Positions 21,145-54,926 of a stretch of 64,000 nucleotides of DNA are shown one piece after another; within the stretch, counting starts at the first letter, position 1, and every line of letters begins with the position of its first letter. Source of the DNA: Escherichia coli (GTDB taxonomy: Bacteria; Pseudomonadota; Gammaproteobacteria; Enterobacterales; Enterobacteriaceae); assembly GCF_003018255.1 (NCBI RefSeq), contig NZ_CP027440.1; one strand, written 5' to 3'. Below the pieces are notes generated by a model. The model searched no databases, had not been told where the DNA came from, and worked only from the letters and a program-made list of their open reading frames with translations. The position numbers and the translations under genes are program-made.

Positions 21145-21145
21145 T

Positions 21146-26010: not shown

Positions 26011-26012
26011 CG

Positions 26013-29154: not shown

Positions 29155-30822
29155 ATGATCCACGCCTTTATTAAAAAAGGGTGTTTTCAGGATTCGGTCA
29201 GTTTAATGATTATTTCACGAAAACTCAGCGAATCAGAAAATGTTGATGATGTTTCCGTAATGATGGGTACGCCCGCCAATAAAGCGTTATTAGATACCAC
29301 AGGTTTCTGGCATGACGATTTTAATAACGCCACGCCGAACGATATTTGCGTGGCAATTCGTAGCGAAGCGGCGGATGCGGGGATCGCGCAGGCGATTATG
29401 CAGCAGCTTGAAGAGGCGCTAAAACAACTGGCGCAGGGGTCAGCCAGCAGCCAGGCGTTGACGCAGGTGCGCCGCTGGGACAGTGCCTGTCAGAAATTAC
29501 CCGATGCCAATCTGGCGCTGATTTCAGTGGCTGGTGAGTATGCGGCGGAGCTGGCGAACCAGGCGCTGGATCGCAACCTCAACGTGATGATGTTCTCCGA
29601 TAACGTCACGCTGGAAGATGAAATCCAACTTAAAACCCGCGCGCGGGAAAAAGGCTTGCTGGTGATGGGGCCGGACTGCGGTACGTCGATGATTGCCGGC
29701 ACGCCGCTGGCTTTTGCTAACGTGATACCGGAAGGCAACATTGGCGTCATTGGCGCTTCCGGTACCGGGATTCAGGAGCTGTGCTCACAGATTGCGCTGG
29801 CAGGGGAGGGAATTACTCACGCGATTGGCCTTGGCGGGCGCGACCTCAGCCGTGAAGTGGGCGGCATCAGTGCGCTGACGGCGCTGGAAATGCTCAGTGC
29901 AGACGAGAAAAGCGAAGTGCTGGCATTTGTTTCAAAACCACCTGCCGAAGCGGTGCGTCTGAAAATTGTTAATGCCATGAAAGCAACTGGCAAACCGACG
30001 GTGGCGCTGTTTTTAGGTTATACCCCGGCGGTGGCCCGCGACGAGAATGTCTGGTTTGCCTCCTCGCTGGATGAGGCCGCTCGTCTGGCTTGTCTGCTTT
30101 CACGCGTCACTGCGCGACGTAACGCGATAGCGCCTGTCAGCAGCGGATTTATTTGCGGTTTGTATACCGGCGGTACGCTGGCTGCTGAAGCTGCGGGATT
30201 ACTTGCCGGACACCTTGGCGTGGAAGCCGACGATACCCATCAACATGGCATGATGCTGGACGCCGACGGACATCAGATCCTCGACCTGGGCGATGATTTT
30301 TACACCGTCGGGCGTCCCCATCCGATGATCGACCCGACCTTACGCAACCTGTTAATTGCCGATCTCGGCGCTAAACCGCAAGTGCGCGTGTTGCTGCTTG
30401 ATGTCGTGATTGGCTTCGGTGCGACCGCCGATCCTGCCGCCTCGCTGGTGAGCGCCTGGCAAAAAGCCTGTGCCGCGCGTTCAGACAATCAACCACTGTA
30501 TGCCATTGCCACGGTGACAGGCACTGAACGTGACCCGCAATGCCGCGCGCAGCAAATCGCCACGCTGGAAGATGCGGGGATCGCGGTAGTGAGTTCGCTA
30601 CCGGAAGCCACCTTGCTGGCTGCGGCGTTAATTCATCCGCTCTCGTCAGCCACACAGCAACACACACCGTCATTACTGGAAAACGTCGCCGTGATTAACA
30701 TCGGATTATGCAGCTTTGCGCTGGAGCTACAAAGCGCCAGCAAACCGGTTGTGCATTACCAATGGTCGCCAGTCGCCGGCGGCAATAAAAAACTGGCTCG
30801 TTTATTAGAACGTTTGCAATAA
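29155..30822 (+). CDS. fdrA: FdrA (acyl-CoA synthetase-like)
   Basis: 555-aa ORF; CoA-binding / succinyl-CoA synthetase-like domains. Confidence 0.85.
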   Translation: MIHAFIKKGCFQDSVSLMIISRKLSESENVDDVSVMMGTPANKALLDTTGFWHDDFNNATPNDICVAIRSEAADAGIAQAIMQQLEEALKQLAQGSASSQALTQVRRWDSACQKLPDANLALISVAGEYAAELANQALDRNLNVMMFSDNVTLEDEIQLKTRAREKGLLVMGPDCGTSMIAGTPLAFANVIPEGNIGVIGASGTGIQELCSQIALAGEGITHAIGLGGRDLSREVGGISALTALEMLSADEKSEVLAFVSKPPAEAVRLKIVNAMKATGKPTVALFLGYTPAVARDENVWFASSLDEAARLACLLSRVTARRNAIAPVSSGFICGLYTGGTLAAEAAGLLAGHLGVEADDTHQHGMMLDADGHQILDLGDDFYTVGRPHPMIDPTLRNLLIADLGAKPQVRVLLLDVVIGFGATADPAASLVSAWQKACAARSDNQPLYAIATVTGTERDPQCRAQQIATLEDAGIAVVSSLPEATLLAAALIHPLSSATQQHTPSLLENVAVINIGLCSFALELQSASKPVVHYQWSPVAGGNKKLARLLERLQ

Positions 30823-30831
30823 GGGGTTCCC

Positions 30832-32091
30832 ATGTTTACATCAGTGGCGCAAGCCAATGCTGCGGTTATCGAACAAATTCGTCGCGCTCGTCCACACTGG
30901 CTGGATGTGCAACCGGCTTCTTCACTTATCAGCGAACTAAACGAGGGCAAAACACTGCTTCACGCCGGGCCGCCAATGCGCTGGCAGGAGATGACCGGAC
31001 CCATGAAAGGGGCATGTGTGGGCGCATGTCTGTTTGAAGGCTGGGCGAAAGATGAAGCGCAGGCGCTGGCAATGCTGGATCAGGGGGAAGTGAACTTCAT
31101 TCCTTGTCACCATGTGAATGCCGTCGGGCCAATGGGCGGCATTACTTCTGCCAGTATGCCGATGCTGGTGGTCGAGAACGTGACCGACGGCAACCGGGCG
31201 TACTGCAACCTCAACGAAGGTATCGGCAAAGTGATGCGTTTTGGCGCTTACGGCGAAGATGTTCTGACTCGCCATCGCTGGATGCGCGATGTGTTAATGC
31301 CAGTATTAAGCGCGGCGCTGGGGCGCATGGAGCGCGGTATCGATCTCACCGCGATGATGGCGCAGGGCATTACCATGGGCGATGAGTTCCATCAACGCAA
31401 TATTGCTTCCTCAGCACTGTTAATGCGTGCGCTGGCCCCACACATTGCTCGCCTCGATCATGATAAACAGCACATCGCGGAAGTGATGGATTTCCTCAGC
31501 GTGACCGATCAGTTCTTCCTTAACCTCGCGATGGCTTACTGCAAGGCGGCGATGGATGCTGGTGCGATGATCCGCGCAGGCAGCATCGTCACGGCTATGA
31601 CCCGCAACGGCAATATGTTCGGGATTCGGGTAAGCGGGCTGGGCGAACGCTGGTTTACTGCGCCTGTAAACACTCCCCAAGGGCTGTTTTTCACCGGCTT
31701 CTCGCAGGAGCAGGCGAACCCGGATATGGGCGATAGCGCAATTACCGAAACCTTTGGTATTGGCGGTGCGGCGATGATCGCAGCGCCTGGCGTAACGCGC
31801 TTTGTCGGTGCGGGTGGCATGGAAGCGGCCAGAGCGGTATCTGAAGAGATGGCGGAAATCTTCCTTGAACGCAATATGCAGTTGCAGATCCCCGGCTGGG
31901 ATTTCCAGGGCGCGTGCCTGGGGCTGGATATTCGTCGCGTGGTAGAAACCGGCATTACGCCGCTCATCAATACCGGAATCGCCCATAAAGAGGCGGGGAT
32001 CGGGCAGATTGGCGCAGGCACCGTGCGGGCACCGCTGGCGTGCTTTGAGCAGGCGCTGGAAGCACTGGCTGAAAGCATGGGGATTGGTTGA
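30832..32091 (+). CDS. ylbE: DUF1116-family protein YlbE
   Basis: 419-aa ORF; synteny. Confidence 0.8.
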
Positions 32092-32101
32092 GGAACGCAC
32101 A

Positions 32102-32917
32102 ATGACGATCATCCATCCTCTGCTTGCCAGTAGTAGCGCACCGAATTATCGCCAGTCCTGGCGGTTAGCGGGAGTGTGGCGGCGGGCGATTAACCTGATG
32201 ACGGAAAGCGGCGAACTGTTAACGCTGCATCGTCAGGGTAGTGGTTTCGGCCCCGGAGGATGGGTGCTTCGCCGCGCGCAATTCGATGCGTTATGCGGTG
32301 GATTATGCGGCAATGAACGACCACAGGTTATGGCTCAAGGGATTCGCCTCGGACGTTTCACGGTTAAACAGCCACAGCGTTATTGTTTGCTGCGTATTAC
32401 GCCGCCTGCGCATCCTCAACCGCTTGCAGCTGCATGGATGCAACGCGCGGAGGAAACCGGGCTTTTCGGGCCACTGGCGTTGGCGGCAGGCGATCCGCTT
32501 CCTGCTGAATTACGCCAGTTTCGTCACTGTTTTCAGGCCGCGCTCAATGGCGTTAAGACCGACTGGCGGCACTGGCTGGGTAAAGGCCCAGGATTAACGC
32601 CAAGTCATGATGACACGCTGAGCGGAATGCTGCTGGCGGCCTGGTATTATGGCGCTTTAGATGCGCGCTCCGGTCGCCCGTTTTTTGCCTGTTCCGACAA
32701 TCTTCAACTCGTTACCACAGCGGTGAGCGTCAGTTATTTACGTTATGCCGCGCAAGGATACTTCGCCTCGCCACTCCTGCACTTTATTCATGCTCTGAGT
32801 TGCCCGAAACGTACCGCTGTTGCGATTGATTCGCTGCTGGCGCTGGGGCATACGTCAGGGGCAGATACGCTGCTGGGGTTCTGGCTTGGCCAACAATTAT
32901 TACAAGGAAAATCATGA
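32102..32917 (+). CDS. ylbF: DUF2877-family protein YlbF
   Basis: ORF 32009-32917 trimmed to ATG 32102 ([11 protein letters not shown]), 271 aa. Confidence 0.7.
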
Positions 32918-33807
32918 AAACACTGGTTGTGGCTCTTGGGGGCAACGCCTTACTCCAGCGCGGTGAGGCGCTGACGGCAGAAAATCAATATCGCAACATT
33001 GCCAGTGCTGTACCCGCACTGGCGCGCCTGGCCCGTTCTTATCGGCTGGCGATTGTTCACGGCAACGGGCCGCAGGTGGGGCTGCTGGCGTTACAGAATC
33101 TGGCGTGGAAAGAGGTAGAACCGTATCCGCTGGATGTGCTGGTGGCGGAAAGCCAGGGGATGATTGGCTATATGCTGGCGCAGAGCTTGAGCGCACAGCC
33201 GCAGATGCCGCCTGTCACGACAGTGCTGACGCGCATTGAAGTTTCGCCTGATGATCCGGCGTTTTTGCAGCCAGAGAAGTTTATCGGTCCGGTTTATCAG
33301 CCAGAAGAACAAGAGGCACTGGAAGCGGCTTATGGCTGGCAGATGAAACGTGATGGTAAATATTTACGCCGGGTGGTGGCGTCTCCGCAACCGCGTAAAA
33401 TTCTCGACAGCGAAGCCATCGAGTTGTTGCTCAAAGAGGGGCATGTGGTGATTTGCAGTGGCGGCGGCGGTGTGCCTGTGACGAAAGACGGGGCAGGGAG
33501 TGAAGCGGTAATTGATAAAGATCTCGCCGCTGCGTTGCTCGCCGAGCAGATTAATGCCGATGGACTGGTGATCCTCACCGATGCTGATGCGGTATATGAA
33601 AACTGGGGAACGCCGCAGCAACGTGCCATTCGCCATGCCACACCGGATGAGTTAGCGCCATTTGCCAAAGCCGATGGTTCGATGGGGCCGAAGGTGACTG
33701 CGGTGAGTGGCTATGTCAGAAGCCGTGGCAAACCCGCGTGGATTGGGGCGTTATCGCGGATTGAAGAGACGCTGGCGGGCGAAGCGGGGACTTGTATTTC
33801 GCTGTAG
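32914..33807 (+). CDS. ybcF: Carbamate kinase-like protein
   Basis: 297 aa, amino-acid kinase fold ([14 protein letters not shown]...). Confidence 0.85.
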
Positions 33808-33836
33808 TGATGGGCACCAGGCAATTGGCACATCCA

Positions 33837-34325
<489 letters not shown>

Positions 34326-34339
34326 AAAATGAGCATCAA

Positions 34340-35407
34340 TTAACTGAACTTGCTCTGCGCCCACATCACGCCGCTGGCATACTCTGGCGGCAGCAGCGGG
34401 ATTAAGGCTTCCAGCGTCGCGGTCAGACGCGATGTGTCGCTGTCGGTCAAATTCAGATGCCCCACTTTACGCCCCGGACGGACTTCTTTGTCGTACCAGT
34501 GCAGATGCACCAGCGGCAGTTTCAGCCAGTCATAATTCACATCGCTACCAATCAGGTTGATCATCACCGACGGACTATTCACTACCGGTTGCGGTAACGG
34601 CAGATCGGTAATCGCCCGCAGATGCAGCTCAAACTGGCTGATGCTGGCACCGTTTTGTGTCCAGTGACCGCTGTTATGCACACGCGGAGCCAGTTCGTTG
34701 ATCAGCAGACCTTGCGGGGTGACAAAACACTCCATTGCCATCACGCCTACATAGCCCAGCTCCTGCATAATCGCCGACAGCATCTCTTCGGCTTGCGCTT
34801 GCTGCTGCGCATTGGCCTGCGGGAAAGCGACGCTGGTGCGCAAAATACCGTCCTGATGCAGGTTATGCGTCAGCGGATAAAACACGGTGCTGCCATCAAA
34901 ACCGCGCGCGCCAACCAGCGACACTTCACCAGAGAAGTTAATGCCCTGCTCGACAATACATTCGCCGTAACACTCTGCCGGTAACTGTTCGGTTTCATTT
35001 GCGCGTAAACGCCATTGACCGCGACCGTCATAGCCACCAGTGCGACGCTTAACAATCGCCAGTTCACCTAAACGATCAAACACCGCAGGCCACTCGCTGC
35101 GATCGGCAAGTAACTGCCACGGCGCGGTCGGCAGGTGGAGCTTATCGAAAAGCTGCTTCTGAGTCAGACGGTCGGCAATAATCGGGAACACATCGCGGTT
35201 CACAAAGGCCGGATGGCGCGCCAGCTCGCGGGTTAATGCGGTTTCCGGCCAGCGTTCGATCTCAGCGGTAATCACACTTTGTTGAACAGGCACCGCCGCC
35301 GGTTCAGCGTCCAGCCCGACCGGCCAGACAGCAATGCCTAACGGTTCGCCTGCCTGACGCAGCATACGGCCTAACTGCCCGTTACCGAGGACGCAAACCT
35401 GTTTCAT
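34340..35407 (-). CDS. purK: N5-carboxyaminoimidazole ribonucleotide synthase
   Basis: 355-aa ATP-grasp ORF overlapping the purE stop. Confidence 0.9.
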
Positions 35408-35913
35408 GCCGCACCTCGCGGGTCCGGGTTTTCCAGCACTTCGTCGGTCTGGGCTTTGCGCCAGTCATTCAGACGCTGGTGCAGTTCTTTATCATGAGTC
35501 GCAAGAATTTGTGCTGCCAGTAACGCCGCGTTTGCCGCGCCAGCTTTACCAATCGCCAGCGTACCCACCGGAATGCCGCGCGGCATTTGTACGATGGAGT
35601 AGAGGCTATCGACACCGCTCAGTGCGGCGCTCTGTACTGGCACGCCCAGCACTGGCACCAGCGTTTTGGCGGCAATCATGCCTGGCAGGTGCGCTGCGCC
35701 GCCTGCGCCCGCAATAATCACCTGATAACCGTTCTCTTCGGCACTTTCGGCGAAGCTGAACAGTTTATCGGGGGTGCGGTGAGCAGAAACCACTTCAACG
35801 TGGTGTGGGACATTCAGGATTTCGAAGATTTCGGCGGCGAACTGCATGGTAGCCCAGTCGCTTTTGGACCCCATCACGATGGCGACACGCGCCGGATTAT
35901 TGCGGGAAGACAT
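35404..35913 (-). CDS. purE: N5-CAIR mutase
   Basis: ORF 35404-35940 trimmed to [19 protein letters not shown] (169 aa). Confidence 0.9.
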
Positions 35914-36030
35914 GCGTCTTAAAACTCCTGTGGTGCACAACTCTCGGCTTTAGAGGGCACAGAGAATAGCACGGAAAGAGAGCAAGGAAAACGGTTGCGC
36001 GGTTATGAAATCAGCAAAGTTGCGCGTTTT

Positions 36031-36753
36031 TTAAAATGGAAAATGGATCAACTCAACGTCATCCGCCGTGACTTTCACCATCGAACCTTCAGTATGCCAG
36101 GCACCCAGCACGACGCGGAAAGCAGGTTGCTGATTGGCGATAAGTTCATGTACTGCCGGGCGATGGGTATGCCCGTGAATCAGCCATTGCACCTGATGTT
36201 TTTCCATCGCACTGACCACCGCGTTTTGGTTAACGTCCATGATCGCCAGCGATTTACTGCTGTTGGCTTCTTTGCTGTTCGCGCGCATTCGCGCGGCAAT
36301 GCGTTTGCGCACAAACAACGGCAGGGCGAGGAATAGCGTTTGCAGCCAGGGTTTGTGGACTTTGGCGCGAAAAGCCTGATAACCGGCGTCATCGGTGCAC
36401 AGCGTGTCGCCATGCATAATCAACACCCGGCGACCATAAAGTTCGAGCACCTTTTCTTCCGGCAATAACGTCATGCCGCTTTCACGGGCAAAGCGTTTGC
36501 CGAGCAGAAAATCACGGTTGCCATGAATGAAATAACAGGGAACGCCGGAATCGGACACCGCTTTGATCGCTGCCGCCATCTGGCGATGGAGTGGGTTGGG
36601 ATCGTCGTCGCCAATCCATGCTTCAAACAGATCGCCAAGAATATACAGCGCGTCGGCCTTGCGGGCTTCCCCCGCTAAAAAACGCAGAAAACCGGCGGTG
36701 ATCGCCGGTTCTTCCGCGCAGAGATGAAGATCTGCAATAAAGAGTGTCGCCAC
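36031..36753 (-). CDS. lpxH: UDP-2,3-diacylglucosamine pyrophosphatase
   Basis: 240 aa, calcineurin-like phosphoesterase motifs ([11 protein letters not shown]...GNRD). Confidence 0.9.
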
Positions 36754-36755
36754 GA

Positions 36756-37250
36756 TTACTCGCTAACGGTCACGCTTTCAATGATAACGTCTTCTTTTGG
36801 CACGTCCTGGTGCATACCGCTACGACCGGTTGCAACACCTTTGATTTTGTCTACCACGTCCATGCCTTCAACCACTTCAGCAAACACGCAGTAACCCCAA
36901 CCTTGCAGGCTTTCGCCAGAGAAGTTCAGGAAGTCGTTATCAACCACGTTGATGAAGAACTGTGCAGTTGCAGAGTGCGGTGCCTGAGTACGGGCCATTG
37001 CCAGTGTACCACGGGTATTTTTCAGACCGTTGTTAGCTTCGTTTTTGATCGGGTCTTTGGTGGTTTTTTGCTTCATGCCCGGCTCAAAACCGCCGCCCTG
37101 AATCATAAAGCCGTTGATTACACGGTGGAAAATGGTGTTGTTGTAAAAACCTTCGCGGCAGTAGTCCAGGAAGTTTTTAACTGTTTCAGGTGCTTTATCG
37201 TCAAAAGTTTTGATGACAATATCGCCGTGATTGGTGTGGAAAGTAACCAT
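36756..37250 (-). CDS. ppiB: Peptidyl-prolyl cis-trans isomerase B (cyclophilin)
   Basis: 164-aa cyclophilin ORF. Confidence 0.9.
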
Positions 37251-37423
37251 TTTTGCATCCTGTTCCGTTTGATTGGTGCTTCAACCCGGTTCGGGTCATA
37301 TATAGGGTGGTGTTATAGCATAACCGCACGATCGGATCATCACGCAATGTATGCTGATTCGCGCGGGAAATATGGGTATTATACGCAACTCAATTACCCA
37401 CACATGTCTAAACGGAATCTTCG

Positions 37424-38809
37424 ATGCTAAAAATCTTCAATACTCTGACACGCCAAAAAGAGGAATTTAAGCCTATTCACGCCGGGGAAGTCGGCATGTA
37501 CGTGTGTGGAATCACCGTTTACGATCTCTGTCATATCGGTCACGGGCGTACCTTTGTTGCTTTTGACGTGGTTGCGCGCTATCTGCGTTTCCTCGGCTAT
37601 AAGCTGAAGTATGTGCGCAACATTACCGATATCGACGACAAAATCATCAAACGCGCCAATGAAAATGGCGAAAGCTTTGTAGCGCTGGTGGATCGCATGA
37701 TCGCCGAAATGCACAAAGATTTTGATGCTTTGAATATTCTGCGCCCGGATATGGAGCCGCGCGCGACGCACCATATCGCAGAAATTATTGAACTCACTGA
37801 ACAACTGATCGCCAAAGGTCACGCGTATGTGGCGGACAACGGCGACGTGATGTTCGACGTACCGACCGATCCGACTTATGGCGTGCTGTCGCGTCAGGAT
37901 CTCGACCAGTTGCAGGCAGGCGCGCGCGTTGACGTAGTCGATGACAAACGCAACCCAATGGATTTCGTTCTGTGGAAGATGTCGAAAGAGGGCGAACCGA
38001 GCTGGCCGTCGCCGTGGGGCGCGGGCCGTCCAGGCTGGCACATTGAATGTTCGGCAATGAACTGCAAGCAGCTGGGTAACCACTTTGATATCCACGGCGG
38101 CGGTTCAGACCTGATGTTCCCGCACCACGAGAACGAAATCGCGCAGTCCACCTGTGCCCATGATGGTCAGTATGTGAACTACTGGATGCACTCGGGGATG
38201 GTGATGGTTGACCGCGAGAAGATGTCCAAATCGCTGGGTAACTTCTTTACCGTGCGCGATGTGCTGAAATACTACGACGCGGAAACCGTGCGTTACTTCC
38301 TGATGTCAGGCCACTATCGCAGCCAGCTGAACTACAGCGAAGAGAACCTGAAGCAGGCACGCGCGGCGCTGGAGCGTCTCTACACTGCGCTGCGTGGCAC
38401 AGATAAAACCGTTGCGCCTGCCGGTGGCGAAGCGTTTGAAGCGCGCTTTATTGAAGCGATGGACGACGATTTCAACACCCCGGAAGCCTATTCCGTGCTG
38501 TTTGATATGGCGCGTGAAGTGAACCGTCTGAAAGCAGAAGATATGGCAGCGGCGAATGCAATGGCATCTCACCTGCGTAAACTTTCCGCTGTATTGGGCC
38601 TGCTGGAGCAAGAACCGGAAGCGTTCCTGCAAAGCGGTGCGCAGGCAGACGACAGCGAAGTGGCTGAGATTGAAGCGTTAATTCAACAGCGTCTGGATGC
38701 CCGTAAAGCGAAAGACTGGGCGGCGGCAGATGCGGCGCGTGACCGTCTTAACGAGATGGGGATCGTGCTGGAAGATGGCCCGCAAGGGACCACCTGGCGT
38801 CGTAAGTAA
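37424..38809 (+). CDS. cysS: Cysteinyl-tRNA synthetase
   Basis: 461 aa with class I HIGH (CHIGHGRT) and KMSKS motifs. Confidence 0.95.
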
Positions 38810-38844
38810 TTGCGCTATTGCCGGATGCGAGTTTTCGCATCCGG

Positions 38845-39366
38845 TTATCGTCTGCGCCACCACAACATTCCCATCAGTAGCATCCCCGGCAACCACACCC
38901 ACATCAATTCAGAAATAATCACCTGATGCCCGTACGGCGTGGTGTAACGAGACAATGCAAACGGCGCGACTTTAATCACCTGCCAGGGAGCGAAAAAGCG
39001 TTCATCTGACCACGGCCACAGCCAGCCAACGCCTTTACCGCCAGTGGTTACCGAATCCAGCAAGCTGTGCGATAGCAACGAGACGGTTAAAAACAGCCAG
39101 CAGCGAATCAGCCCAGCCCTGAACCATCGACGTCCAATCAGCACACATAACAGCGGGACAACAAACGCAAACACCAGCGAATGGGTAAACCCGCGATGAC
39201 CAAAAACATTGCCGTAAGCAAAGCCAAATTTAAACGACAATACGTCGGCATCAGGCAGCATCGCCAGGACGATTCCGGCAAATAACAGGCGCGGAGGGAT
39301 GACTTTCGAACCCAACCCTAAACCAATGCAAAGGGGAACGGCGGCGTGCGTAATAACGGTTGGCAT
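38845..39366 (-). CDS. ybcI: Inner-membrane metal-dependent hydrolase-like protein
   Basis: 173-aa hydrophobic ORF; synteny. Confidence 0.8.
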   Translation of the reverse strand: MPTVITHAAVPLCIGLGLGSKVIPPRLLFAGIVLAMLPDADVLSFKFGFAYGNVFGHRGFTHSLVFAFVVPLLCVLIGRRWFRAGLIRCWLFLTVSLLSHSLLDSVTTGGKGVGWLWPWSDERFFAPWQVIKVAPFALSRYTTPYGHQVIISELMWVWLPGMLLMGMLWWRRR

Positions 39367-39473
39367 GATGGTCGCTTCGGCAAAATGTCGATGCTATCAG
39401 CATGGATGAACGGGGCGTAGAGGGCAACAGTCTGAAAAGAGAACCGGCCTGTTGTTACAGGCCGGGAAAGGGA

Positions 39474-39686
39474 TCAGGCAACAACCTGTACGCTGTGACC
39501 TGCAAAACTCACTGTCTGCCCGGCGACGATTTTGCAGCGTTTGCGCGTTTCAACCGCACCGTCGACTTTCACCTGGCCTTCGGCAATCGCGATTTTCGCC
39601 TGCGCGCCGCTTTCGCTCCAGCCTTCCAGTTTCAGCAAGTCGCACAGCTCAACGTGCGGATGTTTACCTAAAGAAAATGTCGCCAT
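39474..39686 (-). CDS. ybcJ: S4-domain RNA-binding protein
   Basis: ORF 39474-39740 trimmed to MATFSLGKHPHVELCDLLK (70 aa). Confidence 0.8.
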   Translation of the reverse strand: MATFSLGKHPHVELCDLLKLEGWSESGAQAKIAIAEGQVKVDGAVETRKRCKIVAGQTVSFAGHSVQVVA

Positions 39687-39687
39687 G

Positions 39688-40554
39688 TTACTCACCCTGT
39701 GGATCATGATATTCAACGCACGCCTGTAGCGTGTTTTCAATCAGCGTGGCAACCGTCATCGGGCCAACGCCGCCCGGAACAGGCGTAATGTATGAGGCGC
39801 GTTTAGCCGCGTCTTCAAACACGACGTCGCCCACAACTTTGCCATTTTCCAGACGGTTGATGCCGACATCAATCACAATTGCGCCTTCTTTGATCCAGTC
39901 ACCAGGAATAAAGCCCGGCTTGCCGACGGCAACGATCAGTAGATCGGCATTTTCTACGTGGTGACGCAGATTTTTAGTGAAACGGTGAGTCACGGTGGTG
40001 GTGCAACCTGCCAGTAGCAGTTCCATGCTCATCGGGCGGCCAACGATATTCGATGCGCCAATCACCACGGCGTTGAGGCCGAAGGTATCAATGTTGTAAC
40101 GCTCAAGCAGCGTGACAATACCGCGCGGGGTGCAGGGACGCAGACGCGGCGCGCGCTGGCACAGGCGACCGACGTTATAAGGATGGAAACCGTCCACGTC
40201 TTTGTCCGGGTGTATACGTTCCAGCACTTTGACGTTATCAATACCCGCCGGTAACGGCAGTTGAACCAGAATGCCATCGATGGTGTTGTCGGCATTCAGC
40301 GCATCGATAAGCTCCAGCAGCTCCGCTTCGCTGGTGGTTTCCGGGAGGTCATAAGAGCGGGAGACGAACCCGACTTCTTCACAAGCCTTGCGTTTGCTTG
40401 CGACATAAATTTGCGATGCAGGGTTACTACCCACCAGCACAACGGCCAGTCCTGGTGCCCGCAGTCCGGCTGCAATACGCGCCTGAACTTTTTGAGCAAC
40501 TTCAGAGCGCACCTGCTGCGCAATCGTTTTACCGTCAATAATCTTTGCTGCCAT
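39688..40554 (-). CDS. folD: Bifunctional methylene-THF dehydrogenase / cyclohydrolase
   Basis: 288-aa ORF; FolD family. Confidence 0.9.
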
Positions 40555-40824
40555 CAGAGAGAGGATTCCATCTGTTACGTAGGTCGAAGGGGATGCGTCT
40601 ATTTTGTCAGAAGCGTGGCGCGCTGTCAGTTTTCGTTTTCTGAAAAGTAAAACCTTCTGTACCTGGCTGATTCACACCTATCATGATAACCGTCGTTGGT
40701 TTGCCGCCATAGTGAGCTACATCTGATGCGGTCGTACACTTGTTCAGCAACTGGTTCAAAAGCCATTGACTCAGCAAGGGTTGACCGTATAATTCACGCG
40801 ATTACAGCACACCGTGGTATCAAT

Positions 40825-40901
40825 GCGCCCTTAGCTCAGTTGGATAGAGCAACGACCTTCTAAGTCGTGGGCCGCAGGTTCGAATCCTGCAGGGCGCGCC
40901 A
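40825..40901 (+). tRNA. argU: tRNA-Arg (anticodon UCU)
   Basis: GCGCCCTTAGCTCAGTTGGATAGAGCAACGACCTTCTAAGTCGTGGGCCGCAGGTTCGAATCCTGCAGGGCGCGCCA; cloverleaf, UCU anticodon, encoded CCA. Confidence 0.9.
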
Positions 40902-40908
40902 TTAAAAT

Positions 40909-41536
40909 TCAATCAGTTACGCCTTCTTTATTTCTTCTATAATTCCAGAGTGGGACATTATCACCAAAAATGTCGTCTATTTTCCTCGCGTGCTCAGTCA
41001 AATGATTAGGCGCAAGGTGAGCATATCTACGAACCATTTCTCTGGACTCCCATCCGCCCATTTCCTGAAGCACTGATAATGGGACGCCTGACGGAATCAA
41101 CCAGCTTGCCCAGGTATGCCAGAGGTCATGGAAACGGAAATTTTCAATTCCTGCACGACGACAAGCTGATAGCCATGCTGTCTTGCTGTCAATGCGCATC
41201 TTCCTGAGCGCAGGCATTGATGTTCCATCTGCTCGCTTAGCCGCCCTGGTATGTACACCCACATTTGTGATGCTTGCCTGTTTGATCACGCAACACTTTA
41301 GAGGCGGTATCGTTCAGCGCCACACCAATGGCGCAGTTTGATTTGCTATCTTCTGGATTCACCCTGGCAACTTGTCGCTGCATGTCAATCTGTTGCCACT
41401 CCAGATTTATGATGTTCGACTTTCTCAGAACAGTTACCAGCGCAAATTTGACGACAGATTTCAGTGGTTCGGGGCTCTCATCAATCAGGCGTTTGGCCTG
41501 ATTCTTTTGTAAGTCTCTTGTGCCATTCCACCTCAT
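40909..41536 (-). pseudogene. Phage integrase, frameshifted and N-terminally truncated
   Basis: Two reading frames (40909-41289 with the catalytic HDLWHTWAS...RYAHL region; 41237-41536 with the middle region) read as one disrupted integrase oriented with its 3' end next to the tRNA. Confidence 0.7.
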
Positions 41537-41589
41537 ACAGGTTTGCCTGCAAACAGTACTGATATTGCCCAGATATTCCGGCTGGCTTC

Positions 41590-41865
41590 GTGGTTGTTTT
41601 CAACAGTGATGAGGCATCGTGGCATCTCGTTGAAGACCATCGGGGTAAAACGGTTTATGACGTGGCATCAGGGGACGCATTATTTATTTCTGAACTCGGT
41701 CCGTTACCGGAAAATGTCACCAGGTATCCCCGGCAGGGGAGTTTCAGAAGTGGAACGGCATATCATGGATAAAGGATACGGAGGAAGAAACCTCGTTGCT
41801 GGAAGCCTGGAAGATGTATCGGGTGTTGCTGAACCGAGTTGATACATCAACTGCCCCTGATATTT
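41590..41865 (+). pseudogene. Tail fibre assembly (Tfa) gene fragment, frameshifted
   Basis: [19 protein letters not shown]...GPLPENVT in one frame and ...[29 protein letters not shown] in another; typical Tfa N- and C-terminal segments. Confidence 0.5.
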
Positions 41866-41948
41866 AGTGGCCTGTGAACCCTGTCAGAGAGTAATCATTG
41901 GGATTATGCCGCAGAACGTCGTGCGCAAGAACGTGCTGCGGCTGGATG

Positions 41949-42617
41949 CTATTTTTTCCCTGAAGCGGAAAACATTACTACAGTACCTTTAACCTTGGTT
42001 TTAACATTCTCGAAATGCTCTGAGAGTATATGTGTTAAGCCTTCTTCGGAATCTTTTGTGTTTGAAAAGATGCCTTTCTGATTGTAAATGCGCATCAGTT
42101 TTTGACCGAAGCTATTGTGCACAACGCCGTCACCAAGAATTGTGGCTCCGTATAGAGTTCCATCGTCAGTTAAGGCCTGCGCCGCATTGCGTATTACACA
42201 GCTTTTTGTAGATATATTTCCAGGCAGGCAGTGAAGAAGGTAAAACATGGAAATGGAATCAAATTGACCATGTAACGCCGCGGGATAAGGATCAAAAACA
42301 TCATGGCTAATTTTATGTTTAATTTTTGATTCCCCAGCCCTTGTCGATGCCGCGTTCAGGCTAGCTTCGTTCAAATCCATTAAAGATATCAGACTACTCT
42401 CAGGTACGTGAGTAAGGTAAAACCCAGTTCCAACGCCAATATCCAGATGGTTGTTACCTAAATGTTCCAGAAAGTGTGGAAGAAGGTGTTCCTTTGTAGG
42501 ACATCCCCATGCAAGCCGATTTGATACACCCAAAACCCACCAGTCATAAAGCTTTAGGGTAAGTGGTGTGTAAATTTTAGCCCCATCATCTGTGTTTTTT
42601 TTCATTAGTTTCACCAT
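41949..42617 (-). CDS. Class I SAM-dependent methyltransferase
   Basis: 222 aa with SAM-binding motif LDIGVGTGFYL; intact reading frame. Confidence 0.7.
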   Translation of the reverse strand: MVKLMKKNTDDGAKIYTPLTLKLYDWWVLGVSNRLAWGCPTKEHLLPHFLEHLGNNHLDIGVGTGFYLTHVPESSLISLMDLNEASLNAASTRAGESKIKHKISHDVFDPYPAALHGQFDSISMFYLLHCLPGNISTKSCVIRNAAQALTDDGTLYGATILGDGVVHNSFGQKLMRIYNQKGIFSNTKDSEEGLTHILSEHFENVKTKVKGTVVMFSASGKK

Positions 42618-42848
42618 GTTATAGTTTTATTTGTGAATTAAATCAATTATAGCGATGAATTACAAGGGGTTAAATGATGCCACGGCATAACGAATTTGAA
42701 TATATTGAGTCTTGTGTTGCGGTAAGAGGTTACACGCCAGGACGCAGGTTAAATGCTTACAAGATTAGGGGATATTGTTTGCTTTTAACGGTAAACAAAT
42801 TCCCCGGGGCTATACAATACCACCGGGGAGAAAATCTATTTAACGTTG

Positions 42849-43802
42849 TTAAAAGGTGTACTTAAGACCAGCAGTAGTGATGAAGTTATAGTTTTCTATG
42901 CCTGCACCATTTTTGCTGTAGTCAGAAGTGTTATCATTGTGATCATAAAGTGAAGTATCACCTTTTTTATTCGTAACCCGATTCCATGCGCCTTCAATAT
43001 AAACTTTTGCATTAGGCGTTACGTAATAACCTGCATTGACTGCAACAGAATAGTAATTTTGGTCTTTGACTTTACTGCGATAAGTGATTCTTTTTCCTGG
43101 GTCATAGTGTTCATCGTTATCAGATGCTTCCACCCAGCCGCTGTATTTAAATGTGCCACCTAGCTCAAAATCTTCATAACGATAACTTCCAGTCAAGCCA
43201 ATGTAGGGCATTTTAAAACGTTGTTTGTAGCCGATTGCTCTTTCTCCATTCGGGAAGGAGCCGATATCATCTCTGAATCCCTCCTCAGAACTGTAGATAT
43301 AGGAACCACCTCTGGCTGTAAAGCTATAACGGCTTTCCTGATATCCGGCCATGAGTCCCAGGCGGTAATTGGGTTCGTTGAGGAACCAGCCTTTGATATT
43401 CAGATCAAATTCGTTGGCATAATTGAGTTGTGTATCAGGGTGTCTACTTTCATCCGTCCAGGTTCCGGGGTTACTGGAATCCATCCAGTCCTGATCGACC
43501 ATATTGCCACCTCGGCTGCCGAGTGTTGTCCAGCCAGCAGCCCCGATAGATATCTGGGGCATCAAATCCCAATTAATTGCACCTTTAATAATTGCAGCGT
43601 TATTGAATTTCCAGTCAAGTTGACTGACTTTTCGGCCTCCTTCTTCGGCTAGATAAACACGCTCTTTTGTTTTTCCGCTCAGAGTTCCAAGACTAATGTC
43701 CGCATTTATGTTGTCAGGAGTAAACGATAAAGTCTCGGTAGAAGCAAAAGAGCTGATCGCAATAGGGGTTGTCAGGACTATTCCCAGAAGTTTCGCCCGC
43801 AT
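42849..43802 (-). CDS. ompT: Outer-membrane protease (omptin)
   Basis: 317 aa with signal peptide and omptin beta-barrel sequence ending ...TAGLKYTF. Confidence 0.9.
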   Translation of the reverse strand: MRAKLLGIVLTTPIAISSFASTETLSFTPDNINADISLGTLSGKTKERVYLAEEGGRKVSQLDWKFNNAAIIKGAINWDLMPQISIGAAGWTTLGSRGGNMVDQDWMDSSNPGTWTDESRHPDTQLNYANEFDLNIKGWFLNEPNYRLGLMAGYQESRYSFTARGGSYIYSSEEGFRDDIGSFPNGERAIGYKQRFKMPYIGLTGSYRYEDFELGGTFKYSGWVEASDNDEHYDPGKRITYRSKVKDQNYYSVAVNAGYYVTPNAKVYIEGAWNRVTNKKGDTSLYDHNDNTSDYSKNGAGIENYNFITTAGLKYTF

Positions 43803-44226
43803 AAAAGGTCTCCATTCAATCGTTTTAATGATTGAGTATGTATTTTTTATATCTAACTTAATGAGTCAATTGTATATTGCCCCACTGTTTATATTTTGTT
43901 TAACATTGAATTTTTGTCACAATGCACTGTCAGTTTTTTAGTTTAATTGTCTGTTTGTGTTTTGCATTGTGGTTTTATGGGCTAATTATTTTTTTCTTTG
44001 TGGAGTTTTTATCTATTCAAGTACCATGCCTTTAGATGCATATTAGCGATAATAGCATGAGGTTTATCCTCAATTGCTGTGTTTTTTAGTATAAAAAAGA
44101 GGAACAAAACTGAGACACATAAGGCCTCGCAATGGCTTGCAAGGTTTTACATATTTTGAGGTGGTGGAACGTGTGAACGCAGAGATGGCGCGGTAATTTG
44201 TTGATTTAAAATGTCGTTCCTGGAGT

Positions 44227-44270
44227 TTCTAAGTCGTGGGCTACAGGTTCGAATCCTGCAGGGCGAGCCA
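44227..44270 (+). repeat. Partial duplicate of the tRNA-Arg 3' end (attR of the remnant)
   Basis: ttctaagtcgtgggctacaggttcgaatcctgcagggcgagcca matches the 3' 44 nt of the tRNA with 3 mismatches. Confidence 0.75.
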
Positions 44271-44460
44271 TTTCCTCGCCATTTATTTGTTCCCTTTTAC
44301 AAATTACACCATCACTTTGTTGTCGCGGTTTTGCTAAATAATTGGAACACGTCAGACGAATAAAATGAAAACAGAAATTCTGCTAAACAATTCATCTTGC
44401 CAGGATTTTGATTAGGAAAGTGAAAAGGAAAGGAGCAAGCTAAGTTGCTCCCTTTAATCA

Positions 44461-50548: not shown

Positions 50549-50745
50549 ACAAAAACCTTACATTAACGCTGGTTATGTTTAGGGTGGCGTATATTAAGGT
50601 TTTTTATGAATTGTGACAGCTTTTTACCATTAATAGGTATGACTATTGCGGCACGTTATTTTTACACTGGTTATAAAAGTTGCCGTTTGCGTAGAATGTA
50701 GACAAAAGCGTGGTGTCAAGGAGGGGAGGTTAACGCAGGGAAAGA

Positions 50746-51882
50746 TTACGAAAGCCCGCTCCCAGCAAGGACTGACGCGAGATAGTTTCTGTCCATGGCT
50801 GCTTTTCGCAACTTACGTCTTAACCCTGCCTTGAATACCTTATCATTCGTCAAAATATTAATAGCGATGTGCCGTAGCCCTGAAAATAATTCTGCTGCAT
50901 TTCCTCTTCTTATTTTGCAGTCGTCTTCATTCATTACCACGTCCAGACGCCAGTGCAGCTTATTCTCCACGTGCCAGTGGTTTCGGATTGCTGTGGCGAA
51001 CTTCTCTGCGGTTAAATCAGCAGAACTGATATAATATCTGACCGTCATTTCTGGCTCTTTCTTTTGTTCTGCTATTATTGACCGAAAGGAGACTGCCACG
51101 CATAATTTCTTCAGTCCTTTCCATTCAAACGTGAAATCAATAAGTTCATCAGGGACATCGCAAACAATGTGAAGCCGGATTTCTTCTCTGCCGTGACTCT
51201 TTTCACTAATTGCGTAACTGTCATGCTCTGGATTATTTAATTCTTTCAGTGGGAATTTTTCCTCAAAGGCTTTATTAAGCCGCCCCTGATTTCCTTTTAC
51301 AGCGAATAAATAATCACCGCCCTGTTTTTGTATCTTCTCTGCAATATCTTTCTGGCAACCCATCGCATCAGTTGTGATGATTTTTCCTTTAATATCCAGC
51401 ATGTTAAGAAGTTCTGGGATAGCTGTAATCTCATTAGATTTCTCATCCGTCCTGATCTGTCCGATGACCAGACTGTGCATTGTTGAGAACGCACTAATGA
51501 CATGAATCGCTCCCCTGCGGCGACTCCTGTCATAAGAATGCCGGAGTGTTTTTCCATCGATTGCAATAACGTCTTTATCATCTGAAGTATGGCAATCTCG
51601 CATCCAGTTAATAAAGCACTCGTGAAATTTTGAAGGACTGATACAGGATACAACTCTGGCGATGGTATCGTGAACAGGAATACCATTTTCAAAATCACCA
51701 TATTGTTTTAAAAAATCGAGATGTGTTTCCCCAAAATCCTCTATATCTTCCCAGCCTTCTGCACCAGAAATAACGGCACAAATAGTCAACAGTAGAATAT
51801 CCGACAATTTATGTTCCACTTTCCAGGCTTGTCTGTAATCGGGGATAATAGAAATATGTTCCATCAATTTTTTAAGTTCCAT
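50746..51882 (-). mobile_element. ISAs1-family transposase (H-repeat-associated protein)
   Basis: 378 aa, [51 protein letters not shown]...; classic H-rpt ORF at the distal end of an Rhs element. Confidence 0.85.
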
Positions 51883-51908
51883 TTTGTTCTCCTTAATTAT
51901 GTAAGGAG

Positions 51909-52147
51909 TATTTGATCATGTATACGCAATAAAAAACAGCTTCAGGTAATGAGGAATATCTCGATTTTTAAACATAAAATGCGAATTACTTAGTACAAAA
52001 AATGTACTTCTGATGATCTTTCCCTGGTATTTGATCATGTATAAGCAATAAAAAACAGCTTCAGGTAATGAGGAATATCTCAATTTTTAAACATAAAATG
52101 CGAATTGTTTAGTACAAAAAAGCAGCGTTACGTGATCTTTCCCTGGT
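51909..52147. repeat. Two tandem ~119-bp direct repeats
   Basis: tatttgatcatgtata(c/a)gcaataaaaaacagcttcaggtaatgaggaatatct...ctttccctgg at 51909-52026 and 52028-52147, ~93% identical. Confidence 0.8.
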
Positions 52148-52272
52148 GCAGGAACTGAGGAAGGAACTTTATCAGGTTAAACAGGTGGTGAAGGGAATGA
52201 AGAACGGGATATCCGGCGTATTACGCGAGGTATAAAAATAAAAGCCGGGAGATTGTCACTCCCGGCAACATA

Positions 52273-52554
52273 TTATTTTTTTATTTCATTATATCTGATA
52301 AAAAAAGTATTTAGCGCATCATGTTCATCTTGTGAGAACAATAAAATAATTTTATCCCATGAATGTCCTGTTACTCCATAATAGTCTTCAATATAAGATT
52401 GAAGCCTTATTAATATCTCAATATTGACGATTTCTTTTGGCTCTCTCATTTGCCATCCATCCAGGAAAGCTTTTAACGCCGATATGGTATGCCTGCTTAA
52501 ATATAAAGCTGGTCTTTTTTCTATCATATCAATCAGTTTAACAATATCATTCAT
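52273..52554 (-). CDS. Putative immunity protein for the orphan Rhs toxin tip
   Basis: 93-aa AT-rich ORF starting 3 bp after the orphan toxin stop. Confidence 0.5.
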   Translation of the reverse strand: MNDIVKLIDMIEKRPALYLSRHTISALKAFLDGWQMREPKEIVNIEILIRLQSYIEDYYGVTGHSWDKIILLFSQDEHDALNTFFIRYNEIKK

Positions 52555-52556
52555 AA

Positions 52557-53180
52557 TTAAAACCTTGATGGAGTAATGGTGTATTCGCCAGGAGAGTATA
52601 TATCATTCAGCCAATCTTCATACTTTATACCAGAAGGATTCATATTATCAAAAACTGTATCACCTACTTTTATTGCTTCATGATGACCATTAGTTGCTAT
52701 ATTTTTACCTATTCTATCACTCCATATATTGCCAAAGGCACCTTGTTTATTTTTAGTTTCGAGTATGAGATGCTCACCATTTACCCCAGCTTGTTGCATT
52801 TTACTTTTTAACGCTGCGGCAAATTTATCGCATTGAAAAAGCTGTTTAAACTTATCACTTATTGTTGTTGCAAGATCCCTTGTTTTTGCGATATCGCAAA
52901 TGGTTAATCCTAATGGATCAATATAACCAAGGGGATTATGAACATATGCATAATTGTTTATCCCGCCTCTCAGCCCTATCGGGTCACTCACCAGGTACAT
53001 CCCTGTTTCCGGCTCGTAATACCGGAACCGGTTATAGCACAGCCCGGATTCCGTATCCTGCCACTGTCCTGCATACAGCAGGCCGGGGTCGGGGTCGGCT
53101 TCCGGGTCCAGCTCCCCGCGCGGGTCCGGGTAGCCGGTGTCTGCGGGCAGACTGAGTGCCAGCCCCCACAGGCTGGTTTG
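52557..53180 (-). CDS. Orphan Rhs C-terminal module (core end with DPxGL motifs plus ~115-aa toxin domain)
   Basis: In frame with the upstream orphan core but separated by TGA; reads ...YRYYEPETGMYLVSDPIGLRGG...YIDPLGLTICDIAKTRD... Confidence 0.55.
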   Translation of the reverse strand, partial: QTSLWGLALSLPADTGYPDPRGELDPEADPDPGLLYAGQWQDTESGLCYNRFRYYEPETGMYLVSDPIGLRGGINNYAYVHNPLGYIDPLGLTICDIAKTRDLATTISDKFKQLFQCDKFAAALKSKMQQAGVNGEHLILETKNKQGAFGNIWSDRIGKNIATNGHHEAIKVGDTVFDNMNPSGIKYEDWLNDIYSPGEYTITPSRF

Positions 53181-54476
53181 TCACGGTCGCCACACGGTTT
53201 TACCTTCACTGTTAAAGAGCATCAGCGGACGGCCCGTCAGGTCGCTCACCGCATGATTCGTCCGCGTCACCCACTGCGGGGCCACCGACGGATGCGGCTG
53301 CCGTACCCGGCTGCACTGCTGGCTTATCAGCTCAAAGCCGTTAAACACCAGGTGCCGTACGCTGTACAGTTTATCATCGCGGTATTCCCGGATTTCCGCA
53401 ATATTGTCGCCGTCCCACAGGTACGTAAAACGGATTTTCTTCCGGTCGCAGCGTTTTTCCGTCCGCCTGCCGCTGGCGTCGTAGCGGTATTCCCACTGCT
53501 CACCCTGTGCGCTGCAATACCCGGTCAGCTGGTCACGGCTGTCCCACCGGAACCGCTCTGTTTCCGGGCGGTAGCCGTCACGGTGTCTGGTGCGGCTGAC
53601 CATCCGGCCTGCGGCGTCATAGTCATACTGCGTGTTTCCGGCCTGTTTCAGCCGGTGGCCTCCGGCATACTGGTCAGTCTCTTCACTTATCCGGTGCCTG
53701 CCCGCAGACTGCGCCTTCAGGTAGCCACAACTGTCATAGCCATAGGACTCATCGCCTTCGCCATAGCCCAGCCCGGTGCCTGAGGCTGTCACCGCCGTGA
53801 CCTGACCGTTCCGGTCCAGCCGGTATTCCCGCCGTGTTTCCCGTCCGTAATCTTCCCGGCTGGTGACAGCCGACACATTGCCCGCGCTGTCGTAACGGTA
53901 CTCCCGTACCAGTGAGGGGAGCAGCCCGCCCCATGTGGTTTCCTCCGGGAAAAATCCGGCGCGCTGGGTGACAAGCTGGCTGGCTGCATTCCAGCCCTGC
54001 TCACAGGCAAAACCCCGGTTACTGTGCCGGAGCACTTCACGTCCTGCCTCATCACGGCTGAACGTCAGCGTCTCATCCCCCGGCAGGATAACCTCCGTCA
54101 GTTCTCCGGCGGCGTTGTAGCGGTAGGTGGTTTTCAGCAGGGATTCACCGGGATGTCTGTCGCGTTCATCTTCCGGTGGCAGGATACAGCGGATGACGGT
54201 GTGTTCATCGGGGTAGTGGTATTCAATGGCCCGTCGGCCCTGAGTGGTGACATTCACCCGCCCGCGTTCGTCATAGCCGGTGCGCTGTGATGTGCCGTCC
54301 GGGCTGAAGATACCCGTCAGCCTGCCGGATTTGTCATACGCATACTGCGTTTTGCCTTCCGGCGTGATGACTTCTGCCAGGCGGCCTGCGGCGTCCCGGC
54401 TGTAGAGGATGGTTTCCTCCAGACCGTTAACCCTGGCGGTACACAGGCCATCGGCGTCATAGCGGTAACGCCAGGC
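53181..54476 (-). pseudogene. Orphan rhs core fragment (duplicate of the 3' core of the main rhs)
   Basis: ~1.3 kb ~98% identical to 55589-56885; 5'-truncated; ends in the same in-frame TGA. Confidence 0.75.
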
Positions 54477-54503
54477 TACTCCGTTGTACCCAGCTCATAG
54501 AAT

Positions 54504-54926
54504 TTATCTAGCAATTTGTATTAAGGGGGTTTCACCCACATGTTTTAATAAACTCATTAACCAGATGGCCTCTTCTCTCGTTCCGGAGTATATTACCTTC
54601 GATTCATTTCTAATAATTCGAAGTGCTTCTTTTGTATCAATCGAAAAAGCCTTACGAATGACTTTTATAGTTTCCATCTGTGATTTTATATTTTCAAGTC
54701 TAACATTCCATAAACCCTCAAAATCAATCAATTGTAGACGAATTTTTTCTGGGGGAAAGCCTATATCATCTGATTCACTACGTAATCCGCAATTATGGCA
54801 TATAATTGATTCATACCATGCGAGTATACCATTGTGACTCGTCTGCCCTATAGCTATAGAACATATTTTTCCACAGCAAGGACACTCAATAGTCGTTTTA
54901 AATTCATCACCAAACACTATAACCAC
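54504..54926 (-). CDS. Putative immunity protein for the main Rhs toxin (Cys-rich zinc-ribbon-like)
   Basis: 140 aa, CPCCGK...CHNCG motifs; start overlaps the toxin stop by 10 bp. Confidence 0.55.
   Translation of the reverse strand: MVIVFGDEFKTTIECPCCGKICSIAIGQTSHNGILAWYESIICHNCGLRSESDDIGFPPEKIRLQLIDFEGLWNVRLENIKSQMETIKVIRKAFSIDTKEALRIIRNESKVIYSGTREEAIWLMSLLKHVGETPLIQIAR

Follow-up and report, generated by a model that had tools for sequence, protein, structure and literature searches.

A probable lambdoid prophage stump with intact ybcY and ompT at the argU tRNA gene of Escherichia coli

Gene content and borders of the argU island

The window, a stretch of 64,000 nucleotides (nt) from Escherichia coli contig NZ_CP027440.1, shows between folD and ybcH an island of about 3.4 kb that starts at the tRNA gene argU. 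In E. coli K-12 this position holds the prophage DLP12, and the same module is carried by active lambdoid phages such as Lambda_ev243 and PhiR26_1; we read the island as the probable stump of a prophage of this type. A preliminary description of the window had reported the tRNA followed by a broken integrase gene, a fragment of a tail-fibre-assembly gene (tfa), an intact methyltransferase gene, ompT and the right attachment site (attR), and each of them lies where it had been placed. The features, with the evidence for each in brackets, are:

40825 to 40901, plus strand: argU, tRNA-Arg(UCU), whose 3' 46 nt (40858 to 40903) form the core of the left attachment site, attL (ARAGORN, Rfam, identity to K-12)
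40909 to 41536, minus strand: int', pseudogene of a DLP12-type tyrosine integrase, C-terminal half, frameshifted (Pfam, BLAST, translation against IntD)
41509 to 41524, no strand: junction of a large deletion with one end halfway along int and the other at about codon 31 of tfa (int homology ends at 41508; homology to the tfa of PhiR26_1 starts at 41525)
41525 to 41894, plus strand: tfa', tail-fibre-assembly pseudogene (phrog_105, 6e-20; BLAST to K-12 tfaD and PhiR26_1 tfa)
41949 to 42617, minus strand: ybcY-type class I S-adenosylmethionine (SAM)-dependent methyltransferase, intact, 222 amino acids (aa), with a second ATG at 42605 that would give 218 aa (Pfam, phrog_2132, AlphaFold2 and Foldseek)
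42646 to 42673, minus strand: promoter-like site TTAACC-16-TATAAT, about 28 nt 5' of the ybcY ATG (consensus scan, 10/12)
42694 to 42700, no strand: junction of the missing cargo, a 7-nt overlap of alignment blocks (BLAST blocks 41778-42700 and 42694-44272 against Lambda_ev243)
42849 to 43802, minus strand: ompT, omptin outer-membrane protease, intact, 317 aa (Pfam, NCBIfam, catalytic residues)
43803 to 44226, minus strand: 5' region of ompT of the "EPEC/B2 type", phage-derived, the P arm of attR (four-way alignment, binned identities)
44227 to 44272, plus strand: attR core, displaced copy of the argU 3' end with three substitutions, counterpart of K-12 pauD (repeat D1, 43/46)

ARAGORN found one tRNA gene between 36 and 50 kb of the window, tRNA-Arg(TCT) at 40825-40901, which was also matched by Rfam RF00005 (72.1 bits) and is identical to K-12 argU (77/77). 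Its 3' end is repeated directly at attR (40858-40903 against 44227-44272) with a BLAST E-value of about 4e-14 and thus not by chance. The preliminary description had given this repeat as 44 bp; the repeat exists, but it is 46 nt long and matches in 43 positions. The duplication bounds the element as attL and attR and has the same extent as the core of the phage attachment site (attP) of Lambda_ev243, which is identical to the argU 3' end (46/46). Homology between window and phage ends exactly at both cores (40854 and 44272, by BLAST against Lambda_ev243), and past 44272 only the bacterial flank of K-12 aligns to the window. The attR arm (42694-44272), corresponding to ompT through attP of Lambda_ev243, shows 93.9% identity. 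Because the attP core of active phages is identical to the tRNA 3' end, the origin of the island and both of its borders are fixed. The attR core of K-12 matches the tRNA end in 46/46 positions, against three changes in the window; these are also found in strain E2348/69 and are therefore older than the split of those strains.

The integrase remnant abuts attL on the opposite strand and consists of two overlapping open reading frames (ORFs) on the minus strand (40909-41289 and 41237-41536), both matching Pfam Phage_integrase (6e-17 and 5e-15; model positions 103-171 and 3-86, respectively). Homology to K-12 intD stops at 41508, which leaves about 605 nt of the C-terminal half, in agreement with the broken gene previously reported. 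Nucleotide identity of this fragment is 90.4% to K-12 564584-565419 and 91.9% to int of Lambda_ev243, and RefSeq labels its orthologue "frameshifted; incomplete". Translation against IntD shows, furthermore, an Arg to Trp change in the catalytic HxLRHT box (HDLRHT to HDLWHT). Since the integrase is truncated, frameshifted and altered in its catalytic box, the relic is predicted to be unable to excise and to have lost its mobility. No xis, repressor, replication or morphogenesis genes were found within the borders, and the tfa fragment is the only phage structural or late gene there.

The tfa fragment, likewise borne out by its phrog and BLAST matches, lacks about 31 N-terminal codons and has an internal deletion of about 117 nt flanked by a 13-nt repeat (41778-41790), so that it aligns to K-12 tfaD and to PhiR26_1 tfa in two BLAST blocks that overlap by 13 nt. 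This deletion took out the middle of an Rfam IS009 element: in K-12 the match is a full one of 199 nt (228 bits, 581856-582054) within the 3' part of tfaD, whereas in the window (41770-41851) only its two ends remain, 82 nt that score 67.5 bits, below the gathering score. Beyond argU and this gutted IS009, no other RNA gene was found in the island.

In K-12 MG1655, sfmA-C-D-H-F and fimZ are located between folD and argU, and envY lies between the prophage end and ybcH. DLP12 is annotated there as a feature of 21,302 bp, from inside argU to just past ompT, and its ybcY (b0562) is a pseudogene, as had been stated in the preliminary description. BLAST of the window between 36 and 50 kb against this region gave collinear blocks, with identities of about 98% in the flanks, 90.4% in argU and the 3' 605 nt of intD, 95.9% in ybcY and 92.2% from ompT through attR, and with tfaD in two blocks. 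The K-12 segments absent from the window are 557826-564583 (sfm-fimZ, 6.76 kb), 565420-581658 (the DLP12 core from xisD to aaaD, 16.2 kb), 582902-584633 (tfaX-appY, 1.7 kb) and 586186-587090 (envY, about 0.9 kb). DLP12 (argU-intD ... tfaD-ybcY'-tfaX-appY-ompT-pauD) and the island share the site at the argU 3' end, the att core, the integrase family (90% nucleotide identity over the retained half) and the right-end order tfa, ybcY, ompT, attR. They differ in that the island lacks the core, tfaX-appY and the neighbouring envY and sfm-fimZ, and its ybcY is intact whereas that of K-12 is broken. Furthermore, a stretch of 98 bp immediately downstream of ompT (42701-42798) aligns to Lambda_ev243 but to nothing in K-12, so that further deletion from K-12 DLP12 would not by itself produce the stump. 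Alignment with DLP12 and with the folD-argU region of other strains, which had been proposed as a check, supports the reading of a decayed prophage.

Active phages, the YbcY methyltransferase and OmpT

A tblastn search of 50,697 phage records with the methyltransferase as query gave 14 Escherichia phage records, with protein identities of 98-99%, and one short partial record. The 14 are 13 complete genomes of 45-50 kb, which include isolates grown on E. coli K-12, C and ECOR13, and one record of 31.5 kb; the YbcY protein of the window is 99.1% identical to the product of the gene of active phages. In Lambda_ev243 and PhiR26_1 the gene order is J, lom, stf, tfa, the methyltransferase on the opposite strand, a short second tfa, a hydrolase of 494 aa, ompT, attP and int. 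Integration of such a phage at attP therefore yields the order of the window, attL-int ... tfa-ybcY-...-ompT-attR. Lambda_ev243 (NC_049955, genus Nesevirus), 2G7b, PhiR26_1, PhiR29, Kati and Turner resemble the island in the module tfa-ybcY-tfa'-cargo-ompT-attP-int, in the attP core identical to the argU 3' end and in the methyltransferase (98-99%). These active phages differ from it in having complete genomes of 45-49 kb with an intact integrase of 387 aa, where the window keeps about 3.4 kb, and in having between tfa' and ompT the 494-aa alpha/beta hydrolase (Abhydrolase_1 plus a TAP-like C-terminal domain). This cargo gene is located at 3971-5455 of the Lambda_ev243 segment examined, and its cassette makes up the approximately 1.98 kb of Lambda_ev243 that are unmatched at the 42694-42700 junction. 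The slot between tfa' and ompT is a swap point for cargo genes, since it contains the hydrolase in Lambda_ev243, appY in K-12 and nothing in the window; the whole cassette missing at the junction is tfa' plus the hydrolase in Lambda_ev243 and tfaX-appY in K-12.

The ybcY frame of the window is uninterrupted, as previously reported. Its product matches Pfam Methyltransf_12, 23, 25 and 11 (Methyltransf_12 with 37.5 bits, cut-off 30) and phrog_2132 (6e-156), the SAM-binding motif I reads LDIGVGTG, and D77 is invariant across 32 aligned homologues. The AlphaFold2 model (pLDDT 90.5, pTM 0.87) was matched by Foldseek to class I methyltransferases with a probability of 1.0 and template modelling (TM) scores of about 0.6-0.67. 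Judged on this model, which shows the seven-stranded alpha/beta fold, YbcY is a class I (Rossmann-fold) SAM-dependent methyltransferase. The nearest solved folds are those of a phosphatidylethanolamine N-methyltransferase (8ys9), juvenile hormone acid methyltransferase (JHAMT), SgvM and phosphoethanolamine methyltransferases (PEAMT), all of them acting on small molecules. The best match of the sequence profile to the Protein Data Bank (PDB) was JHAMT (1e-5), and UbiG was also reached, so that by both sequence and fold its nearest relatives are small-molecule O-, N- or C-methyltransferases (JHAMT, UbiG, PEAMT, SgvM).

Several more specific assignments were tried and rejected. YbcY scores 17.6 bits against the PmtA model NF045882 (cut-off 390) and shows 15-16% identity to 8ys9, with TM scores of 0.63-0.65, a fit no better than that of unrelated small-molecule methyltransferases; for PmtA, RquA and CpaM alike, every NCBIfam score is far under its cut-off. 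No DNA methyltransferase family is present among the Pfam, NCBIfam and PDB matches, and the protein has neither an N6_Mtase/DNA_methylase-type domain nor a DPPY/NPPY motif, which were taken as marks of such an enzyme. The fold does not point to a substrate, as its Foldseek neighbours are generic class I small-molecule enzymes, and neither does the neighbourhood, as no partner gene is common to the Salmonella, Enterobacter, Yersinia, Erwinia and Klebsiella contexts. Hydrolase, esterase or lipase genes are found near the methyltransferase in Lambda_ev243, Enterobacter, Erwinia and Yersinia; however, a methyltransferase and esterase module was discarded, as the 494-aa hydrolase of Lambda_ev243 and the 510-aa carboxylesterase of Erwinia show no detectable homology (BLASTP E = 0.87) and belong to different Pfam families. 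The target prediction suggested by the preliminary description thus gave the enzyme class and a generic small-molecule fold, and neither fold, profile nor context assigned a substrate.

Chromosomal members of the YbcY family in Salmonella, Enterobacter, Citrobacter, Klebsiella, Yersinia and Erwinia have 217-229 aa, 56-69% identity and the invariant motifs DxGxGTG, D77 and YLLHCLPG. They differ from the phage copies in being stand-alone genes in non-prophage neighbourhoods that vary by genus. The phage copy looks like a captured host gene, because its homologues stand alone on chromosomes across Enterobacterales.

Between the window and Lambda_ev243, ybcY shows seven synonymous and two non-synonymous differences (synonymous divergence, dS, 0.050; ratio of non-synonymous to synonymous divergence, dN/dS, 0.08). 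The lesion of K-12 ybcY is a loss of 2 bp at the start codon and A-tract (CTAATGAAAAAAAAC in the window vs TTAATAAAAAAAC in K-12), with the remainder of the frame open. The second start codon is followed by a run of eight A (window 42590-42605, minus strand), and the loss lies exactly there, which suggests that K-12 ybcY may have been inactivated recently at a slippage-prone tract. The promoter-like site listed above is weak evidence, because promoter- and terminator-like sites in the region are no more numerous than in shuffled sequence. In K-12, binding of RpoD holoenzyme and H-NS to the ybcY/tfaX spacer has been described in vitro (PMC3946193).

The ompT gene, also reported intact in the preliminary description, matches Pfam PF01278 Omptin with 433.7 bits (cut-off 22.6) over model positions 1-283, and NCBIfam NF008222 with 707 bits (cut-off 537). 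The protein has five amino acid differences from that of K-12 and keeps all four catalytic residues D83, D85, D210 and H212 (mature numbering). Against Lambda_ev243 it shows 13 synonymous and four non-synonymous differences (dS 0.066; dN/dS 0.08, and 0.08-0.10 across comparisons), and the values of ybcY and ompT against K-12 are similar to those against the phage. With dN/dS of about 0.08, the sequence comparison indicates that both genes are under purifying selection.

The region 5' of ompT is about 10% diverged from both K-12 and Lambda_ev243, with a maximum about 130-190 nt upstream of the start codon. This peak in the distal upstream region fits the published promoter difference: an upstream region of the type found in phylogroup B2 and in enteropathogenic E. 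coli (EPEC) has been tied to low ompT expression (PMC6854850). Desloges et al. (2019) described "ompT 657 bp downstream of ybcH and upstream of ybcY" in CFT073, UTI89, 536, J96, ABU83972 and E2348/69, with low omptin activity (PMC6854850). Gene order and spacing of this "EPEC-like" context are identical in the window, where the ybcH stop is at 44461 and the ompT start at 43802, without envY or appY. There is no structural difference between the two, and the papers treat ompT expression and not the prophage borders or the methyltransferase (PMC6854850).

Flanking sequences and distribution among E. coli genomes

The preliminary description had also reported folD within about 270 bp of the tRNA and the absence of sfm and fimZ. 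Both points hold: between the folD start codon (40554) and the first base of the tRNA (40825) lies a spacer of 270 bp, and the sfm-fimZ segment of K-12 has no counterpart. The losses of tfaX-appY and envY, also seen here, had not been mentioned. Two relics were found in the flanks:

40629 to 40667, no strand: probable relic of fimZ in the folD-argU spacer, marking the deletion of sfmACDHF-fimZ (local alignment to K-12 564264-564304)
44305 to 44343, minus strand: relic of the envY 3' end, 39 nt (alignment to the terminal 39 nt of K-12 envY, 586147-586185)

The fimZ alignment has a score of 36, against a mean of 22.2 and a maximum of 32 in 200 shuffles. In addition, window 44388-44432 aligns weakly to K-12 587017-587059, upstream of envY. 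The fimZ and envY relics indicate a deletion in the lineage of the window and not an insertion elsewhere. According to Kisiela et al. (2013), sfmA occurs in 65% of E. coli genomes but is lacking from the whole B2 group, and the same site, adjoining the tRNA-Arg gene, is taken in Salmonella by the fim operon (PMC3604780). RefSeq annotates in the spacer (40595-40792), in E2348/69 and others, a "hypothetical protein" of 65 aa, WP_000025786.1. In the window a stop codon interrupts its frame, which also extends over the argU promoter region, and it is unlikely to be a genuine gene.

Distribution was studied in 5426 complete E. coli genomes, where a probe was counted if at least 80% of it was covered. 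The full query of 3.9 kb, from the folD end to the ybcH end, was covered in one place in 1118 genomes, a 261-nt probe of the int'/tfa' junction in 1120 (identity 96.6-100%) and a 301-nt probe of the folD-argU junction in 1122. Named carriers are LF82, NRG857C, E2348/69 and F11. Five sampled genomes (E2348/69, DETEC-S792, UPEC957C, AVS0155 and Z1323HEC0477) show an identical arrangement, with int and tfa as pseudogenes and the methyltransferase and ompT intact. The relic belongs to a lineage, then, and not to this strain.

The methyltransferase gene itself is present in 3831 of the 5426 genomes, with at least 99% identity in 1166 records. In the preliminary description, a methyltransferase core to this lineage would have counted against a prophage relic. 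The gene is in fact present wherever the configuration occurs; this does not speak against a prophage origin, given that the gene also sits in the corresponding module of active phages.

Other elements of the window lie apart from the island. In the closest genome, DETEC-S792, glxK adjoins allE, and the segment of about 14.2 kb at 12333-26503 of the window is missing. Sequences that match this segment elsewhere carry annotations for an integrase, a DNA primase, the large subunit of terminase, a portal and a major capsid protein. A coverage of 80% or more was reached in only 217 of the 5426 genomes (best identity 96%), and from its gene content the segment looks like a small phage satellite or a capsid-forming element similar to phage-inducible chromosomal islands. 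Four tandem Rfam naRNA4 elements (nucleoid-associated RNA of repetitive extragenic palindromic, REP, type) with a spacing of 100 nt are located at 33892-34269, between the carbamate kinase gene and purK, and 11470-11536 is a full-length match to the enterobacterial small RNA STnc480 (84 bits, gathering score 72). Several mutually similar repeats of 1.5-2.3 kb are present at about 50700-58400. Downstream of nfrB, the closest genome shows (30193-43907 of its compared segment) an ISAs1 transposase, a symE fragment and an Rhs core and toxin-tip cluster with internal stops.

Origin of the island

We conclude, with a probability of roughly 93%, that the island, 3.4 kb long, goes back to a lambdoid prophage of the DLP12 or Lambda_ev243 type at argU, of which deletions have left a stump fixed in a lineage. 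A tyrosine integrase would have recombined the phage attP, with its 46-nt copy of the tRNA end, with the argU 3' end, and integration would have rebuilt the tRNA at attL and moved the old 3' end to attR. A single large deletion, with one end halfway along int and the other near codon 31 of tfa, would then have taken out the genes for early functions, replication, lysis, head and tail. Through smaller deletions, tfa' would have lost about 117 nt of its interior, and the prophage the cargo that lay between ompT and the second tfa fragment; outside the prophage, sfmACDHF-fimZ and envY would have been lost. The survivors would be two leftward-transcribed cargo ("moron") genes of the b region, ompT and the small-molecule-type ybcY, kept by purifying selection. 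This configuration was presumably fixed before the diversification of a large lineage, B2 by its named members, and then inherited vertically.

Several points weigh against this reading. For ompT and ybcY, the dS between window and K-12 amounts to 0.05-0.07, similar to the flanking core (0.07-0.15), yet the K-12 copy is nearer to Lambda_ev243 than to the window. The selection signal comes from few substitutions, and part of the divergence arose in phage lineages. Expression of ybcY is presumed, with a candidate promoter whose match is no better than chance density, and the B2 label for about 1120 genomes is taken from named strains and the literature.

The first of these points bears on whether the relic and DLP12 derive from the same ancestral lysogen, by one integration before the phylogroups separated and divergent decay afterwards, which we regard as possible at rather less than even odds. 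The attachment site and the bacterial flank beyond attR are the same in both, including the envY-end homology. The dS values between window and K-12 (ompT 0.066, ybcY 0.050) are about the same as those of the core neighbours folD (0.072) and cysS (0.083); a further core neighbour, ybcH, gives 0.146. In addition, int' and the non-coding parts of the island are about 8-10% different, roughly a neutral rate. However, the segment 42701-42798 is common to the window and Lambda_ev243 and not to K-12, which has the appY cassette there, and both ybcY (dS 0.014) and the ompT-upstream and attR region of K-12 are far closer to Lambda_ev243 than to the window. The att cores point the same way, weakly, given such small numbers (46/46 in K-12, three changes in the window). 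Separate lysogenies would explain the closeness of K-12 to the phage, and so would later recombination with incoming phages. Recombination of a resident relic with an incoming phage could account for all of these objections; dS and att-core substitutions are too few to tell a single lysogeny from independent ones.

It is improbable that the island, or parts of it, was imported already decayed by homologous recombination (transduction or conjugation) through the folD and ybcH-nfrA flanks, into a lineage that never hosted the complete phage. Such an import would agree with an identity to K-12 of 90-96% in the island against about 98% in the flanks, and with the co-occurrence of sfm loss, envY loss and the relic in nearly one set of genomes (1118, 1120 and 1122). 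The low identity, however, is concentrated in pseudogene and non-coding parts, while coding dS is like that of the core. Moreover, no donor lineage with the same junctions was seen outside this set, and the junction identity of 96.6-100% within it is what old vertical inheritance predicts. That the repeat and fragments are chance similarity or an annotation artefact can be practically dismissed: no point in its favour was found, the E-value of the 46-nt repeat is about 4e-14, collinear blocks of 0.65-1.6 kb to two active phages and DLP12 end exactly at the att cores, and RefSeq independently annotates the same pseudogenes.

The YbcY family could be a real lysogenic-conversion enzyme, a phage-borne methyltransferase of small molecules or lipids that alters a host metabolite or envelope component, with a benefit that would explain its conservation. 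The best structural neighbour, a bacterial phosphatidylethanolamine N-methyltransferase, and the best sequence neighbours, carboxyl and O-methyltransferases, speak for this, as does an intact ybcY under apparent purifying selection in the B2 stump, in about 70% of E. coli genomes and in active phages, beside lom and ompT, both of them envelope genes. We consider this proposal unlikely.

The structure of the locus, its lineage distribution and the link to ompT expression were already known, and current understanding is unchanged by it. Low OmpT activity in uropathogenic E. coli and EPEC has been tied in the literature both to the B2 type of ompT upstream region and to the missing envY. The island reads as a textbook case of prophage domestication, in which a phage of about 45 kb would have been cut to two cargo genes kept by the host lineage, and the combined absence of sfm-fimZ, envY and the body of the prophage makes a handy lineage marker.

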